This document shows positions 2,319 to 48,896 of a stretch of 64,000 nucleotides of DNA, in pieces. Position 1 is the first letter of the stretch, and every line of letters begins with the position of its first letter. Location of the stretch: assembly GCA_000165345.1 (NCBI GenBank), contig CM000436.1, positions 1,024,001 through 1,088,000 on the forward strand, written 5' to 3'. The notes beneath the pieces were generated by a model, which saw nothing but the letters and a program-made list of their open reading frames with translations, was not told the DNA's origin and searched no databases. A program made the position numbers and the translations under genes.

Positions 2319-4463
2319 ATGGGGAGTGGAAGAAAAAGAATAAAAGTAGAAGAAAATGAGAAATCAATTGAAGTTGATAAAGAATTAAATCCATGGAACA
2401 ATGATAAACCATATTCAAATAAATATTATGAATTAAGAAAATTCAGAAAATCTCTTCCAGCTTGGTCAGAAAGAAAAACTTTCTGTAAATTAGTAAAAAA
2501 GAACCAAGTTGTGATTTTAGTTGGAGATACTGGTAGTGGAAAAACAACGCAATGCCCACAATTTATATTAGAATCTGGATTAGGAGGAAATTTAAAGATT
2601 GCATGTACTCAACCACGTAGAGTGGCGGCAATGAGTGTAGCTCAGAGAGTTTCAGAAGAAATGGATGTTTGTTTAGGTGATATTGTTGGATATACAATTA
2701 GATTTGAAGATAAGACAAATGAAAATACGAGACTTAAGTATGTAACAGATGGAATGTTACTTAGAGAAGCAATGTATGATAATGATTTATCTCAATATGG
2801 AGTAATTATTATTGATGAAGCACATGAGAGAACAATCTCAACAGATATTTTAATGGGATCGCTTAAAGAAATATTACTAAGAAGAAATTTTGAATCAAAA
2901 AATCCTTTAAGATTAGTAGTAATGAGTGCAACATTAGAATCAACAAAATTTCAAAGTTATTTTGGTAATGATTCACCAGTTTTTTCAATTCCAGGAAGAA
3001 TGTTCCCTGTTGAATTAATATATAATATAAAACCAGAAAAAGACTATTTAGAAGCATCAATACAAAAAGTACTTGATATACATGAGAATGAAGCACCAGG
3101 TGATATATTATTATTTTTAACAGGAGAAGAGGAAATAGAGCAGGCAAAACAACGTCTAGAATTTTTAAGTTCACCTTTAGAAGAACAATTTGGTGAATTA
3201 GTAATAATACCATTATATTCATCATTACCTCCATATAAACAACAGAAAATATTTGATAAAACTCCAGGACCAAAATATCCTGGTGGTCCTACAGGACGTA
3301 AAGTTGTAATAAGTACAAATATTGCAGAAACTAGTGTTACAATTGATGGAATAGTTTATGTAATAGATCCAGGATTTTCAAAACAAAAAGTATATAATCC
3401 CCGTACAAGAGTAGAATCATTACTCGTTTCACCAATATCAAAAGCTTCAGCAAAACAAAGAATGGGAAGAGCTGGTCGTACAAGAGAAGGTAAATGTTTT
3501 AGATTATATACTAAAGAAGCTTTTGAATCAGAATTGGCAGATCAAACACATCCTGAAATATTAAGAAGTAATTTAAGTAATGTTGTATTAATTTTAAAAA
3601 GTTTAGGTATTAATGATTTAGTTCATTTTGACTTTATGGATCCTCCAGCACCTGAAACTTTAATGAGAGCTCTTGAACAGCTTTATTTTTTAGAGGCAAT
3701 GGATGATGAAGGAGAACTAACTAAATTGGGAAAACTTATGACGGAATTTCCAATTGATCCTCAATTGGCTAGAATGTTAATAAAGTCATCAGAATTAGGA
3801 TGTGCTTCTCAGATATTATCTTTAGCAAGTTTATTAAATGTACCAAATATATTCTTAAGACCAAGAGATAAATCAAAAGAAGCTGATTATGCAAAATCTA
3901 GTTTTGTTGATCCAGATGGGGATCATTTAACTTTGTTATATGCATTTGAGTCTTTTAGAGAAGTATTATACAAGGATGAGAATAAAGCAAAAAAATTTGC
4001 AAAGGAGAATTTCTTGAATTATAGAGCACTAATTTCAGCAGAAAATGTAAGAAAACAGCTTGAAAGAACTTATCAAAAACATATACTTAATACAGGTAAT
4101 CATATTAATTCTGATAATGATCAAATTTCAGAATCAAAACTTAATATTTCTATTAGAAAAGCAATTACCCAGGGATTCTTCATGCAAGCAGCTTGTTTAC
4201 ATAGGTCTGGGCATTATACTACAGTTAGAGATAATCAAGTAGTACATCTTCATCCAAGTTGTGTTTTAAGTTCAAAACCAGAATGGGTATTATATAATGA
4301 GTTTGTTCTGACTTCTAGAAATTTTATCAGAACAGTAACTAAGATTAGAGGTGAATGGTTACTTGAGATTTCTCCAAAATACTATAATCTTGAAGATTTC
4401 CCGGAATGTGATTCTAAGAAGAAGCTTGCTCATCTTAATTATTTTTCTAATAAAAAATTCTAA
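2319..4463 (+). CDS. PRP43: DEAH-box ATP-dependent RNA helicase, Prp43/DHX15-like
   Basis: 714 aa. Walker A GDTGSGKTTQ, DEAH box IIIDEAHERT, SAT motif, QRMGRAGRTREGKCFRLYT motif VI, then HA2/OB C-terminal region. A short N-terminus before the helicase core favours Prp43 over Prp2/16/22. Confidence 0.88.
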   Translation: MGSGRKRIKVEENEKSIEVDKELNPWNNDKPYSNKYYELRKFRKSLPAWSERKTFCKLVKKNQVVILVGDTGSGKTTQCPQFILESGLGGNLKIACTQPRRVAAMSVAQRVSEEMDVCLGDIVGYTIRFEDKTNENTRLKYVTDGMLLREAMYDNDLSQYGVIIIDEAHERTISTDILMGSLKEILLRRNFESKNPLRLVVMSATLESTKFQSYFGNDSPVFSIPGRMFPVELIYNIKPEKDYLEASIQKVLDIHENEAPGDILLFLTGEEEIEQAKQRLEFLSSPLEEQFGELVIIPLYSSLPPYKQQKIFDKTPGPKYPGGPTGRKVVISTNIAETSVTIDGIVYVIDPGFSKQKVYNPRTRVESLLVSPISKASAKQRMGRAGRTREGKCFRLYTKEAFESELADQTHPEILRSNLSNVVLILKSLGINDLVHFDFMDPPAPETLMRALEQLYFLEAMDDEGELTKLGKLMTEFPIDPQLARMLIKSSELGCASQILSLASLLNVPNIFLRPRDKSKEADYAKSSFVDPDGDHLTLLYAFESFREVLYKDENKAKKFAKENFLNYRALISAENVRKQLERTYQKHILNTGNHINSDNDQISESKLNISIRKAITQGFFMQAACLHRSGHYTTVRDNQVVHLHPSCVLSSKPEWVLYNEFVLTSRNFIRTVTKIRGEWLLEISPKYYNLEDFPECDSKKKLAHLNYFSNKKF

Positions 4464-15185: not shown

Positions 15186-15205
15186 GGCGCCAAAATTTTG
15201 GCGCC
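15186..15205. promoter_or_regulatory. perfect 20-bp palindrome GGCGCCAAAATTTTGGCGCC (double E2F-like site), divergent promoter
   Basis: Two head-to-head GGCGCCAAAA half sites plus downstream GGCGGTACCGG. Lies between starts 14802(-) and 15478(+). Confidence 0.5.
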
Positions 15206-18894: not shown

Positions 18895-20993
18895 TTATTT
18901 TTTAAATGTTTGTGGTAGAAAGGGATCTCTAATTCCAGTATTAGGATTAGTAGGAGTAGGATTGATTCCGNTTCCAGAAGTTGTATGATGAGGATTAACT
19001 CTGACTCCTGAAATAATGGGAGTAGGGTTCATACTCATCATATCAGGAGTGGGTGTAGTAGGATGAGGATTGATTCTGATTCCTGAAACAATTGGAGGAG
19101 GATTAACTCCAGTTCTGGGAGTTTTGGAAGGACTAATTCTGATACCAGAAGCAAAAGACTGGGGATTGGTCCCAGTACCGGAAGTGGTTGTAGGATGAGG
19201 GTTGACTCCAATTTTGGGGATTGTGGAAGGACTAACTCTAACACCTGATGCATAGTTTTGAGGATTTGTTCCGAGTTCAGAAGTAGGTATAGTAGGAGGA
19301 TGAACTCCAATTCCAGGGGCTGTGGGCGGAGTGGCTCTGACACCTGAGGCTGTTGGTGGAGTGACTCTGACACCTAAGGCAAAGGACTGGGGATTGATTC
19401 CAGTGCCGGGAGTGGCCGTAGGGTGGTGACTCACTCTGACTCCAGGAATAGATGTGGGAGGGTTTATTCCAACGCTTGAAGTGACAATGGGAGGATTCGC
19501 TCCAGTTCTGGGAATGACTGTAGTTTGGGGGCTCGCTTTGACTCCAGGAGTGGGTTTGGGAAGAAGATTGATTCCAGTTTCAGAAGCGACTGTAGAAGGG
19601 TTTACTCCAATTCCAGGTGCGACTGTAGGAGAATTCACTCCAATTCTAGGGGAAATTTGAGGGTTCANTCCAACTCCAGAAACGACTTGAGGGTTCACTC
19701 CGATTCCAGTAGTAATTTGAGGGTTCACTCCGANTCCAGAAGCAATTTGAGGGTTTACTCCAGTTCCAGAAACAACTTGAGGGCTAATTCCAGCTCCAGG
19801 AGTAATTTGAGGGTTCACTCCGATTCCAGTAGTAATTTGAGGGTTAATTCCAACTCCAGGAGTAATTTGAGGGTTCACTCCAATTCCAGAAACTACTTGA
19901 GGGTTTACTCCAATTCCAGGAGCAATTTGAGGGTTAGTTCCAATTCCAGTAGTAATTTGAGGGTTCACTCCGATTCCAGAAGCAACTTGAGAGTTTACTC
20001 CAATTCTAGGGGAAATTTGAGGGTTTACTCCAGTTCCAGGTGCGACTGTAGGAGGATTCNNTCCAACTCCAGNANNNNNTTGAGGGTTTACNNNAACTCC
20101 NGAAACNACTTGAGGGNTNANTCCANCTCCAGNANNNANTTGAGNGTTNACTCCNANTCCAGTNNTAANTNNANNNNNAANNCCNACTCCTANNNNTAAT
20201 TNNNNGNTTCANTNNGAATTNCANTANTAANNNNAGNGTTCACTNNNANTCCAGNANCTTCTGCTAAAGATGAAGATGGATTATTTTTATTAGTATTTGG
20301 TTGTTTCTGAATATAATAAGGATGTGAAATAATATTTCTACTAGTTGTTGTAATATTTGAATTCATATTTGAACTTATCTGAGAAGAAGAAGATAATGAT
20401 GAATTTATTATACCTGTTGGAACATTAAGATTACTTGAAATCATGTTATTTTTAACTTGTATTTGATTACCAATCAAATTCTGTAAATAATTTTGTTGTA
20501 ATTGCTCTAATTGTGATTTATTAATTTGTGAATTAATTACCATAGAAGATACTCCTTCATTCATATTATTCATCATCATCAAATTAGAATGACAAATATT
20601 TGAATTATCAACTTGGATAAATTGTTTCTCAAGTCTTTTCGATTCTATTTCTCCTTGTTCCTGTTCCACTTCTTTTACTCCATTTGTTTGTGTTCCAGTT
20701 ATTCCAATTCCTTGATTATAAATAATTGAAAATCTCTTCACATGTTCTGTGAATAATTCTTGTATTAATTTAAAATCTCTCTCTATCAATTTTAAACTTG
20801 TAAATATTTCATCTCTTGGCTTATTTTTTAATTCCTTCAATTTCTCTTTTAATTGCATTAATGGTGTAATATTTGTATTTAAAGAAGATAAAAGTCCATT
20901 CTCATTTTTATGATAGTTAATATTATTATTATCACTCTTATTAATCGTCTTATTTAATGTATCTCTACGTACCTTTTCTTCCCTTCTAATCAT
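18895..20993 (-). CDS. repeat protein: Q/N-rich N-terminal region followed by >25 tandem decapeptide repeats G(I/V)G(V/I)NPQ(I/V)(T/V)(T/S)
   Basis: Track ORFs 20190..20993 and 18895..19968 share frame and strand. They are separated only by an N-rich collapsed repeat region. No signal peptide. The C-terminal part is imperfect repeats. Confidence 0.5.
19600..20260. repeat. 30-bp tandem repeat array (coding), with ambiguous bases
   Basis: Units such as CCAGTTCCAGAAACAACTTGAGGGTTTACT repeat head-to-tail. Ns from 20060 to 20250 show the assembler could not resolve copy number. Confidence 0.85.
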
Positions 20994-45954: not shown

Positions 45955-46581
45955 TTATTCATCATTTGATCCTATCTTCATGTTTGCAAGTTGTTGTAAA
46001 GCAAGTGTATCGGAAATAGACATGCTACCGAATCTAACAGGTGCAAAAGATATTGATGATTCTCTTTGAATTGGGCTAGAAACCTCGAAACTTGCATTAA
46101 AATCTTCATTTGGCTCATCATAGTGCTCAGTTTTTGACTTAATGGGAATATTAGTCTCGTCTGAATCACTCTTATCTTTATGTTTGAGACCTCTTTTAAA
46201 CTTCGCAACCGCTTCAAATTGAGCTCTTACATGTTGTAATGTTACACGTCTTCTAGATACCATTGCAGCTAATCTTGCTCTTTGTTTATAAGCATCCACT
46301 ACCTCCTCTTTAGTGTGTGCTAGTGATTGCTGCCTAACTAAATAAGAACGCTCTATGGCTCCTTTCAAACCACCTGAATTGCTAAAACTGATATTTCTTA
46401 GCAATTCACGAGTATTTTGATTAATTATTTGTCTTGTTTCCTCTGGTAACTGTGTTTCATCAAACTCTATATTACTCTCAAACGGAATCAACTTCTTATG
46501 AATCTCTTCATCAAGCTGAGAATCCTCAGCTTCTTCTGAAGCCATCAGCTGTTCTCCATATTCGTTTACTCCATTATCCAT
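45955..46581 (-). CDS. hypothetical acidic protein
   Basis: 208-aa ATG ORF, no motif recognised. Confidence 0.35.
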   Translation of the reverse strand: MDNGVNEYGEQLMASEEAEDSQLDEEIHKKLIPFESNIEFDETQLPEETRQIINQNTRELLRNISFSNSGGLKGAIERSYLVRQQSLAHTKEEVVDAYKQRARLAAMVSRRRVTLQHVRAQFEAVAKFKRGLKHKDKSDSDETNIPIKSKTEHYDEPNEDFNASFEVSSPIQRESSISFAPVRFGSMSISDTLALQQLANMKIGSNDE

Positions 46582-46975
46582 TTAATTTAATTCCCTAATT
46601 TTTTTTTCCCAAAATTGGTCTTTCTGAATTGTTTCTTTACAATTTCCCCCTTGAATCTACTCCCTTTATTATCCTAAGGTCTTAAATTCGTTGTCAGTAT
46701 TTTTTTTCTATTCAAACAATAATCTATTCAATAACGACTTCTTCGCACAATTTTACAACCTAAAGTCAATTCATGACCCGACTACTCCATAAACACACTT
46801 CCCAAGTCGCACTTAGACATGGGCACAAACAGACCTACAGGCAGAGGAGATAAAGTACCTCAGTAACCGCAATATCATGGCGGCACCCGGATATGAAAGC
46901 CGCCAAAATGGCGGCGGGCGAATTCTGCCGCCGCCTTTCGTAGACGGCAGAACCTACAAGCTTTAAAGGAGAGAC

Positions 46976-47280
46976 AGAGACAAAAAGGAAACATCGGGCC
47001 ACTCCCTTTTCCTTCGGCCGTTCAGAATCATCCACACCGCTCGGAGTTCCAACCCAAGAAACTCCGCTGGGTCATCAATGCCGTGCAAGCATACATAAGC
47101 GCATTATCTGGACCAACTTAAACTCCAAAGGAGATAAGAGGAACCAGATAAGAGCAGAGTAGAAACAGGCTACGCTTCCCGTTTCCGGCGGGATGGATAA
47201 CTCATCGTCACGGACAGAGGTGTTGTCAAGAGCTGTAGCCCAATACGATCGGATTCACTATAGAAATGATCCCGTTCGAG
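46976..47280 (-). ncRNA. U3: U3 small nucleolar RNA (box C/D)
   Basis: The minus strand reads ...GUCGACUGUACUCGAACGGGAUCAUUUCUAUAGUGAAUCC. That covers the 5' GACUNUACU element and the invariant box A GGGAUCAUUUCUAUAGU (47246-47262). Downstream are box C UUGAUGACC (47059-47067), a 7-bp hairpin CGGAGUU/AACUCCG, box D CUGA (47011-47014), then UUUCCUUUUU. TTATAC sits at -30 and a GGTCCAAT repeat lies upstream. The 3' end is uncertain: either about 47005 or the T-run at 46971. Confidence 0.75.
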
Positions 47281-47638
47281 TACAGTCGACATTGGACCGT
47301 TGAATTGGAAAAAGGTATAATCCGGTACTGCACGTTTTGGTGATGGTTCTCGAAGAGAATTATACGTATTGGACCGCATTATGTTAGAAGAAAAGTAATG
47401 TAATGTCTTTGACAAATTTCTTTAAGTTGAAAAGCTTATTGATTAGCAACAGGACTGCATGTAGTTAGTAAATTTCATAAATCATAGAATAAAAGGGGAT
47501 AAAATAGAAGGAATAGGAAATATTATGTCATCAATTTAAGTTAGAATAAGGTAGAAATTAGAAATAACAAATGTTGATTACTTATTATAGACTATATCTA
47601 AATGCAGTAGAGATATTTAGAACTAAATAGGCTGAGTT

Positions 47639-48544
47639 TTACTCCTTCTTCTTAATAGGTCTATAAACCCCAATAACTACAGCATGATCTCTATGATAAG
47701 GTTCAAGAGTAAGCTGTTCCTTTGGTTTACATTTTTCGGCTCTTAGTTTATCTATTTCAGATGCAAAAACAGCCTCTGGTTTTGCAGTAGAATCTACGCA
47801 ACTTGCCTTAATAGATATTATAAAGTATCCATTATTCTTAAGGAAAAGATGAGCATTTAAAGCTACTATACGAGCTTGGTCAGGCTGGGCAACATCAGAA
47901 AAGATAACATCGACCATTGGAACAAGCATTCTATACTTTTGAGGAGTTCTTGCATCCTCTACAATAGGAACAATATTCTGACGTCTTTTAGCCATATCTG
48001 TCAAATCTCTTCCAGATCTGTGACTAAACTCTACAGCATAAACACTACCTTCCGGGCCGACCATATCTGATACATGAGAAACTGTTGTTCCATTAGCTGC
48101 TCCCAAGTATAATACCTTTGCTCCTGGTTTAATTGGCATATTAGCAACACCTCCAATAATAGTTGCTCCCAACTTCGATCTAAATGGATTCCAAACACGG
48201 TATTCAATCTTTTCATTAGTCTCAGGATCTGTTGTCTCTACTCTTTTTTCACCATAAATTGAAACACCTGGTACCATATTTCTGGTTACTAATGCATCAC
48301 TCTTACCTTTTGCCATAAAAACACCTTCATGTCTGTGAGGAACAATTATTACTTTTGACCCTCCCTTCATTCCTCCACCTCCTCCTCTACCTCCTTTACC
48401 TCCACCTCTTCCTCTACCTCCACCTGGACTTCTTCCTCCTCCACCTCGGCCTCCACCCGGACTTCTACCTCCACCTCCTCTTCCTCCACCTCTCCCTCCT
48501 CCACCTCGGCCTCTTCCTCCAAATGGACTGCCTCTTGAACTCAT
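47639..48544 (-). CDS. NOP1: fibrillarin (Nop1), box C/D snoRNP 2'-O-methyltransferase
   Basis: N-terminal GAR domain ([13 protein letters not shown]...). The methyltransferase core aligns throughout with fibrillarin ([66 protein letters not shown]). Confidence 0.95.
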
Positions 48545-48896
48545 ATTTATTCTCTACTCTTGGCTTTTTTTTTCACTATTATTCTATCCTTGAGTTTTCT
48601 TTGTCAATACCTGACTTTTTCAATTTCCCTTTATCGCATCCCTTTTTGACTATATATAAATACTTATCCCGTTTTGGCGGCACGTGGCTGTCTCCAGTAT
48701 ATTAATATTTACTAAGGGGAGAAAAAAAAATGGAATTTTACATCACTTTAAATTCCTATCTTTATTTTTATTATCCAGATCTCTTTTTATTTAGGCCAAG
48801 TCCTTCGCTTTCTCCTACCTTTTCCTTCCTTTTATCTCTTCTCCTTCCTTTTTATTCAACAAATCTCATTTCTTCAATATTACGCTGATCTCAACC

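Follow-up and report, generated by a model that had tools for sequence, protein, structure and literature searches.

E2F-like motifs are the most over-represented upstream motifs in Cryptosporidium parvum (PMC3734150; review PMC12246861). They have been described as DTTGSCGCCH and TTTGGCGGGAAV with the cores [C/G]GCGC[G/C] and GGCGGG (motifs 3 and 4 of Oberstaller et al. 2013; PMC3734150), and a G-box motif, 5′-G.GGGG-3′, was published as well (PMC3734150). In ATAC-seq peaks upstream of genes the E2F-like motif is dominant, followed by a poly-T motif, and spacers within the polycistronic transcripts of C. parvum show an enrichment of the E2F motif as well (Xiao et al. 2025, bioRxiv 10.1101/2025.01.17.633476). 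With regard to structured RNAs, one copy each of U1, U2, U4, U5 and U6 has been described elsewhere in the genome, together with U3, SRP RNA and RNase P RNA (Li et al., PMC9465071). For U3, the sRNA-seq assembly was found fused with the downstream mRNA (Li et al. 2022, PMC9465071).

The locus studied here lies in a 64 kb window of C. parvum DNA, the whole stretch that was analyzed, and all coordinates refer to positions within it. The U3 snoRNA gene at 47016..47289 on the minus strand matches the Rfam model ACEA_U3 with 126.5 bits over its full length (1-209). Upstream of it lies the fibrillarin gene (47639-48544, minus strand) and downstream a protein-coding gene of 208 amino acids (45955..46581, minus strand, ATG at 46581), so that all three are co-oriented. 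The 208-aa ORF is identical to the C. parvum Iowa II hypothetical protein EAK89571.1 / CPATCC_004292 (exact protein match); a Pfam search of the protein yielded no domain, and orthologues were found in 10 further Cryptosporidium species or lineages. Given the geometry of the locus, with a sole gene downstream of the single-copy U3, CPATCC_0004520 would correspond to this ORF. A spacer of 434 nt lies between the 3′ end of U3 and the start codon of the 208-aa gene. An initial annotation had singled out positions 46760-46975 inside this spacer as a GC-rich, hairpin-dense element of about 50% GC and proposed an additional small RNA, with a promoter island for the gene at 46581 and a read-through UTR of U3 among the alternatives. 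The base composition is as described: GC content at 46760-46975 is 0.509, compared to 0.291 for the whole window and 0.256 for non-coding 100-nt windows.

U3 itself is preceded by an ACCATCAY-N5-CGTG block (GAGAACCATCAY-N5-CGTG) at 47331-47347 on the minus strand, about 42-58 nt upstream of its 5′ end. This block is conserved in nine of nine aligned Cryptosporidium species, including C. andersoni and C. serpentis, and occurs once in the window; intestinal species additionally carry ATTATA at about -30. We regard the block as a candidate snRNA-type promoter element (PSE/USE-like). The window contains one other large GC-rich island outside the called ORFs, at 18950-19800 with up to 61% GC, in which Rfam searches found nothing above chance. 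The island is a degenerate tandem repeat with coding-like character, and no long ORF was called there because the sequence is interrupted by ambiguous bases (N at 18972, 19669 and 19734). Its 19094-19712 part was rejected as a second non-coding island and is regarded as repeat-rich coding sequence.

The GC-rich element next to U3 is built around a cluster of E2F-like cores at 46877..46938. Read on the plus strand, it comprises ATGGCGGC (46877-46884), GCCGCCAAAAT (46899-46909), ATGGCGGCGGGCGAA (46908-46922) and GCCGCCGCCTTT (46927-46938), four closely spaced sites of the form WWGGCGGC, one of which is GGCGGCGGGCGAA. In a scan of both strands of the whole window for GGCG[CG][CG], the six cores within the 57 bp at 46879-46935 formed the densest cluster. 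Cores of this type are concentrated outside genes: 33 of 36 are non-coding, although non-coding DNA makes up 36% of the sequence, and nearly all of these precede an ATG by 58-700 bp, most often in the form TTTGGCGCCAAA; some are paired, as in GGCGCCAAAATTTTGGCGCC at 15186. The cluster is situated 298 bp upstream of the ATG at 46581 on the same strand, a distance larger than for many core instances in the window. We compared the 150 nt that follow U3 in C. parvum with dinucleotide shuffles and found six cores against a mean of 0.91; none of 2000 shuffles reached six.

GGCGGCGGGCGAA contains the published core GGCGGG, and TTTTGGCGGC, AAAGGCGGCGGC and ATGGCGGC are one-base variants of it. Only one exact published core is present on each strand of the cluster (GGCGGG / CCCGCC), the remainder being GGCGGC, by its sequence a close variant of the published C. 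parvum cores (GGCGGG, [C/G]GCGC[G/C], T/A flanks). The cluster resembles published E2F-like promoter motifs in its core family (GGCGGG, GGCGCC and near variants) with T/A flanks, in its non-coding position upstream of a gene, in its palindromic or inverted pairs and in the adjacent poly-T/pyrimidine tract. However, it differs from them in its unusual density, in consisting mostly of the GGCGGC variant and in abutting the 3′ end of a snoRNA gene. A second close system is the inter-cistronic E2F spacer (Xiao et al. 2025), which likewise places an E2F region between co-oriented units with overlapping or fused transcripts; here, however, the upstream unit is the U3 snoRNA and not a protein-coding cistron. 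The upstream region of fibrillarin carries a GGCGGC variant too (TTTGGCGGCACG at 48676). As canonical E2F-like sites, TTTGGCGCCAAT (48902) and TTAGGCGGGAAT (49123) accompany it in the divergent spacer between fibrillarin on the minus strand and a UCH-domain gene on the plus strand, an arrangement that fits a shared bidirectional promoter for these two genes.

Both hairpins and the Sm-like string on which the small-RNA proposal was built are contained in the cluster, and the strings are present in the sequence as described. On the minus strand, stem-loop 1 (GGCGGCGGCAGAAUUCGCCCGCCGCC, reverse-complementary to 46910-46935) is able to fold into a stem of 8 bp, AUUUUGG follows at 46903-46909, and stem-loop 2 (GGCGGCUUUCAUAUCCGGGUGCCGCC, reverse-complementary to 46879-46904) is able to fold into one of 6 bp. 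The proposed layout of an Sm site flanked by hairpins thus holds as far as the order of stem, AUUUUGG and stem is concerned. It fails in the conformation: the GG of the heptamer constitutes the first two bases of stem 2, which leaves no free single strand on both sides. A repeat finder returned ATGGCGGC twice in direct orientation, at 46877 and 46908, and TGGCGGC/GCCGCCA and GGCGGC/GCCGCC as inverted pairs, TGGCGGC being part of direct as well as inverted repeats. The two hairpins are four WWGGCGGC copies in alternating orientation, and such alternating sites look like GC hairpins on either strand because they are mutually complementary. When 46760-47015 was folded, neither strand had a remarkable energy and the two values were similar (z = -1.76 for the minus and -2.08 for the plus strand), which is the expected outcome of inverted repeats at the DNA level. 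The Sm-like AUUUUGG is simply the T-rich flank and the first GG of one E2F-like site (TTTTGGCGGC). The window contains 39 copies of ATTTTGG where 25 would be expected. In six of these CG comes next, which corresponds to the flank of TTTTGGCG motifs; the over-representation of the heptamer results partly from its being the flank of E2F-like sites.

In order to compare the locus between species we collected syntenic loci via orthologues of the 208-aa protein from C. meleagridis, chipmunk genotype I, the SRR31860986 lineage, C. canis, C. ubiquitum, C. felis, C. ryanae, C. bovis, C. serpentis and C. andersoni, as well as from other C. parvum assemblies. An Rfam scan of nine loci recovered U3 at the syntenic position in each, and every locus collected contains the box D region of U3. 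The spacer between U3 and the ATG varies in length: it measures 434-443 nt in C. parvum, C. bovis and C. ryanae, 225 nt in C. felis, 129 nt in C. serpentis and 117 nt in C. andersoni. In the latter two, the gastric species (L010/L011, about 2870-3001), one or two GC cores are located between U3 and ATG (GGGCGGGC; CCCGCCCGGCGGGGGGG), resulting in an extremely compact arrangement of snoRNA, promoter and gene. The spacer (46582-47015) is also the fastest-evolving part of the locus in comparison to C. meleagridis (L016) and contains many indels. Its four blocks are 59-65% identical between C. parvum and C. meleagridis, compared to 96% for U3, 95-98% for coding sequence and 85-93% for the three other intergenic spacers of the locus. 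This fast change might be due to transcription-associated mutation 3′ of a strongly expressed snoRNA gene or to turnover of sites.

Despite this sequence turnover the presence of the motif is kept across species, as it is for published E2F-like promoter motifs. One to six E2F-like cores were found at 30-140 nt after U3 in 11 of 11 species or lineages, and in eight of these the enrichment over dinucleotide shuffles was significant at P<0.05. At the aligned positions C. meleagridis carries TTGGCGCCA twice, TTGGCGGG and CCCGCC; its sites there read CCTTGGCGCCACG, GCCCGCCGC, GATTGGCGGGT and GGTGGCGCCATGATATTG. In C. canis we found TTTGGCGGGC and TTGGCGCCATGATA, in the SRR31860986 lineage TTCCCGCCTTTTAATTAGGCGGGAAC and TTCCCGCC...GGCGGGAA, and TTAGGCGGGAAC is found among the orthologous cores alongside TTGGCGCCA and TTTGGCGGGC. 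Canonical core forms thus occur in C. meleagridis, C. canis and the SRR31860986 lineage, with sites nearer to the consensus than those of C. parvum. In C. meleagridis both stems are down to 4 bp, since each arm has moved closer to the E2F consensus instead of matching its partner. Variation was also observed within C. parvum: assemblies L001 and L002 differ from the window, L003 and L014 within 46840-46900, where an insertion of 3 nt into the loop of stem 2 converts GGCGGCTTTCAT to GGCGGCTATTTTCAT, a deletion of 3 nt converts ATCTCCTCTGCC to ATCTCTGCC, and a T/C SNP distinguishes GTCTACG from GTCCACG.

Could the element nevertheless encode a small RNA? An independent, lineage-specific snRNA-like RNA on the minus strand, with two GC hairpins around an Sm site just downstream of U3, would be in line with the strings present in C. 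parvum, with a GC-richness that resembles that of U3 and with transcription of the minus strand of the region (PMC9465071). However, Rfam searches of the whole window at gathering thresholds and of 46500-47400 at E<=10 recovered U3 only, the sole RNA gene found in the 64 kb. The best match inside the element was the bacterial Xoo2 model with 19 bits (E = 0.46), a value expected by chance. The covariation analysis in related species that had been suggested was carried out with an alignment of eight sequences of intestinal-clade species, the 14 pairs of the two stems and column shuffles. Pairs were formed in 68.0% of cells compared to a shuffle mean of 67.7%, with 268 of 500 shuffles as high or higher, and changes on both sides of a pair numbered 2 against 1.9 expected. 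RNAalifold gave a consensus of -5.4 kcal/mol with a covariation term of +0.25 and proposed only a weak alternative 7-bp helix built from the same GGC/GCC cores. Pairing is thus at the level of shuffles and covariation is nil. The Sm-like heptamer CAUUUUGG occurs in C. parvum only; at its position we found AGAUUGG in C. meleagridis, GAUAGGG in chipmunk genotype I, CAAAGGG in C. ubiquitum, CUUUGG in C. canis and AUUUAGG in C. felis, with AAUUAGG also among the replacements in other species. A conserved, single-stranded Sm site of the form RAU3-6GR was not found at this position. The spacers of C. andersoni and C. serpentis are too short for the proposal in that, with 117-129 nt, no RNA gene of ~250 nt can be conserved here across the genus. 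The identity of the spacer blocks to C. meleagridis, far below that of U3, is likewise at odds with a conserved structured RNA. A second copy of the conserved U3 upstream block, the candidate snRNA-type promoter element, was not found in the window, which may also speak against an independent snRNA-like gene. Furthermore, Li et al. describe the region only as an overlap of the U3 and mRNA transcripts (PMC9465071). The element thus shares with the 3′ Sm domain of snRNAs a superficial layout of stem, AU4G and stem in C. parvum, but its heptamer overlaps a stem, is not conserved and comes with neither covariation nor a covariance-model match, and the likeness is coincidental. We consider an Sm-class RNA at this position very improbable, and the proposal of a lineage-specific structured ncRNA is not supported. 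Two snoRNA classes were inspected by eye and rejected: for a C/D snoRNA, which would have boxes C (RUGAUGA) and D (CUGA) at its termini, AUGAUAU and CUGA are only 10 nt apart and CUGA is lost in C. meleagridis; for an H/ACA snoRNA, the hinge sequence AUUUUG does not correspond to an H box (ANANNA), and stem 2 is not followed by an ACA. The plus strand had attracted attention through two further strings, which might suggest a telomerase RNA (template CAACCUAAAG for TTTAGG) or a U1-like RNA (GGCAGAGGAGAUA). The U1-like 13-mer is indeed present, as GGCAGAGGAGATA at 46840-46852, and matches the U1 string given at the time in 12 of 13 positions; with up to two mismatches, however, it has one match in the window against 0.37 expected, and 32% of shuffles contain at least one. 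Two C. parvum assemblies, L001 and L002, have lost 3 nt of it, and C. meleagridis does not contain it. The telomere-like string CAACCTAAAG exists as well, at 46756-46765 and not at 46745-46754 where it had been placed. Its 8-mer AACCTAAA (46757-46764, plus strand) is complementary to 1.33 TTTAGG repeats, but it occurs four times in the window against 5.85 expected, and in C. meleagridis the site reads CTAAAAGTC, which breaks the template. A conserved template of at least about 1.5 repeats was not found, the complementary stretch being 8 nt only. Rfam returned neither a U1 nor a telomerase match, the published transcription is on the other strand (PMC9465071), and U1 is annotated elsewhere as a single copy (PMC9465071). 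Both plus-strand proposals are effectively refuted by non-conservation.

The stretch directly 3′ of U3 (46939..47015, minus strand) is pyrimidine-rich with a T5 run and a GC content of 0.48, and it may serve as a U3 trailer or termination zone and/or as the poly-T part of a promoter. Its composition is conserved across species but its sequence is not (59% identity between C. parvum and C. meleagridis), and a local hairpin in it is no better than in shuffles (z about 0). One could ask whether the whole GC-rich region is a U3 3′ trailer or termination zone, in which the GC hairpins provide signals for processing or termination and the promoter of the mRNA is situated elsewhere. The fusion of the U3 assembly with the downstream mRNA (PMC9465071) would agree with this, as would the pyrimidine/T-rich tract after U3 in every species, with T4-T6 runs in most, and the distance from U3 to the GC cluster, which is less variable (30-140 nt) than that from the cluster to the ATG (86-394 nt). 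However, hairpins in the first 55 nt after U3 scored no better than shuffles in 10 of 11 species (z -1.4 to +1.3), C. serpentis alone reaching -2.06, and the GC stems are not conserved as pairs. We make no claim for a conserved hairpin and U-run terminator after U3, for which purine and pyrimidine arms can be seen by eye in several species, given an MFE z about 0 in 10 of 11. The conserved item is the E2F-like core, which elsewhere in the window stands upstream of genes with no snoRNA nearby, and the depletion of ATG described below points to an mRNA leader. A trailer that takes the place of the promoter is thus unlikely. Read-through as such is compatible with a promoter, since transcription from U3 can cross one, and the suggestion of U3 read-through into a UTR fits the published fusion of assembly and mRNA (PMC9465071). 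With similarly low odds, U3 and the 208-aa gene might constitute a snoRNA-mRNA tandem unit. The cluster would in that case serve the monocistronic mRNA as an internal promoter and, as a protein roadblock, help to end U3 transcription. Such an arrangement would explain why the cluster stays near the U3 3′ end while the distance to the ATG varies; if true, transcripts initiated at the U3 promoter would extend across the spacer, akin to the recently described C. parvum polycistrons.

A promoter of the 208-aa gene followed by its 5′ leader is better in line with the remaining part of the spacer. We take 46582..46869 (minus strand) to be the presumed 5′ leader or proximal promoter of this gene, based on ATG depletion and on the fused U3-mRNA assembly; this part contains the U1-like 13-mer, AACCTAAA and a G-box-like GATTCAAGGGGGAA and is 61-65% identical between C. 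parvum and C. meleagridis. Counted between the last core and the start codon and pooled over 11 species (2620 nt), the sense strand contains 14 ATG compared to 55-81 occurrences for each of AGT, TAG, TGA, GAT and GTA, a 4-6-fold depletion; the effect is weaker on the antisense strand, with 11 against 17-44. In chipmunk genotype I the whole 391-nt spacer contains zero ATG, and in C. canis and C. ubiquitum the lone spacer ATG is found inside CGCCATGATA, at the conserved ATGATATTG block. C. parvum itself has four upstream ATGs between -297 and -193, so that its uAUG-free stretch measures only 193 nt. As a property of sequence composition, this depletion points to selection against upstream AUG in an mRNA leader. 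The fused assembly, the single-copy U3 and the presence of one downstream gene together indicate that the spacer is transcribed on the minus strand, continuous with the mRNA.

The ATGATATTG block (46870..46878, minus strand) directly abuts the last E2F-like core (...GCCGCC-ATGATATTG). It reads CGCCATGATATTG in C. parvum and C. meleagridis, CGCCATGATATTT in C. canis, CGCCATGATACTT in C. ubiquitum and GGATATTGC in chipmunk genotype I and C. ryanae. As the best-conserved piece of the spacer between U3 and the ATG, the CGCCATGATATTG block is a candidate for the transcription-start region of the 208-aa gene. A further element, the G-box-like GATTCAAGGGGGAA at 46644-46657 (minus strand), is located about 65 bp upstream of the ATG at 46581 and is conserved in C. 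meleagridis. It may represent a second, proximal promoter element of the gene, and given this motif at -65 the main transcription start could lie nearer to the ATG.

Taken together, we assign a probability of roughly 80% to the reading that the element comprises the upstream control region of the 208-aa gene along with the beginning of its 5′ leader and is not a separate structured RNA. Among the explanations offered initially, the promoter island for the gene at 46581 on the minus strand agrees with the enriched and conserved E2F-like cores and with the ATG-depleted leader that follows them. The assignment draws on the identity, enrichment and conserved presence of the motif, on the lack of conserved RNA structure and on the depletion of ATG; protein binding, the position of the transcription start and read-through are inferred. 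E2F/DP heterodimers would bind the cluster at 46877-46938 and keep it nucleosome-free. The E2F proteins are cgd1_1560 and cgd6_1430, the DP proteins cgd7_3650 and cgd8_1850. Transcription of the 208-aa gene would then start just 3′ of the cluster, around CGCCATGATATTG, and would give a leader of roughly 200-290 nt that is nearly free of upstream AUGs, while transcripts reading through from the strongly expressed U3 gene probably traverse the region as well.

Promoters dominated by E2F-like motifs have already been published for Cryptosporidium, and the element is most likely of this known kind. Its recognition removes a false ncRNA candidate, including the idea of a telomerase RNA, from the list. 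GC-rich hairpin islands in the AT-rich intergenic DNA of Cryptosporidium usually represent E2F-type sites in inverted orientation instead of RNA genes, which provides a useful filter for genome scans. Furthermore, the locus represents a tidy case of transcription-factor-site turnover: the motif is kept genus-wide, while its surroundings diverge faster than the neighboring spacers.
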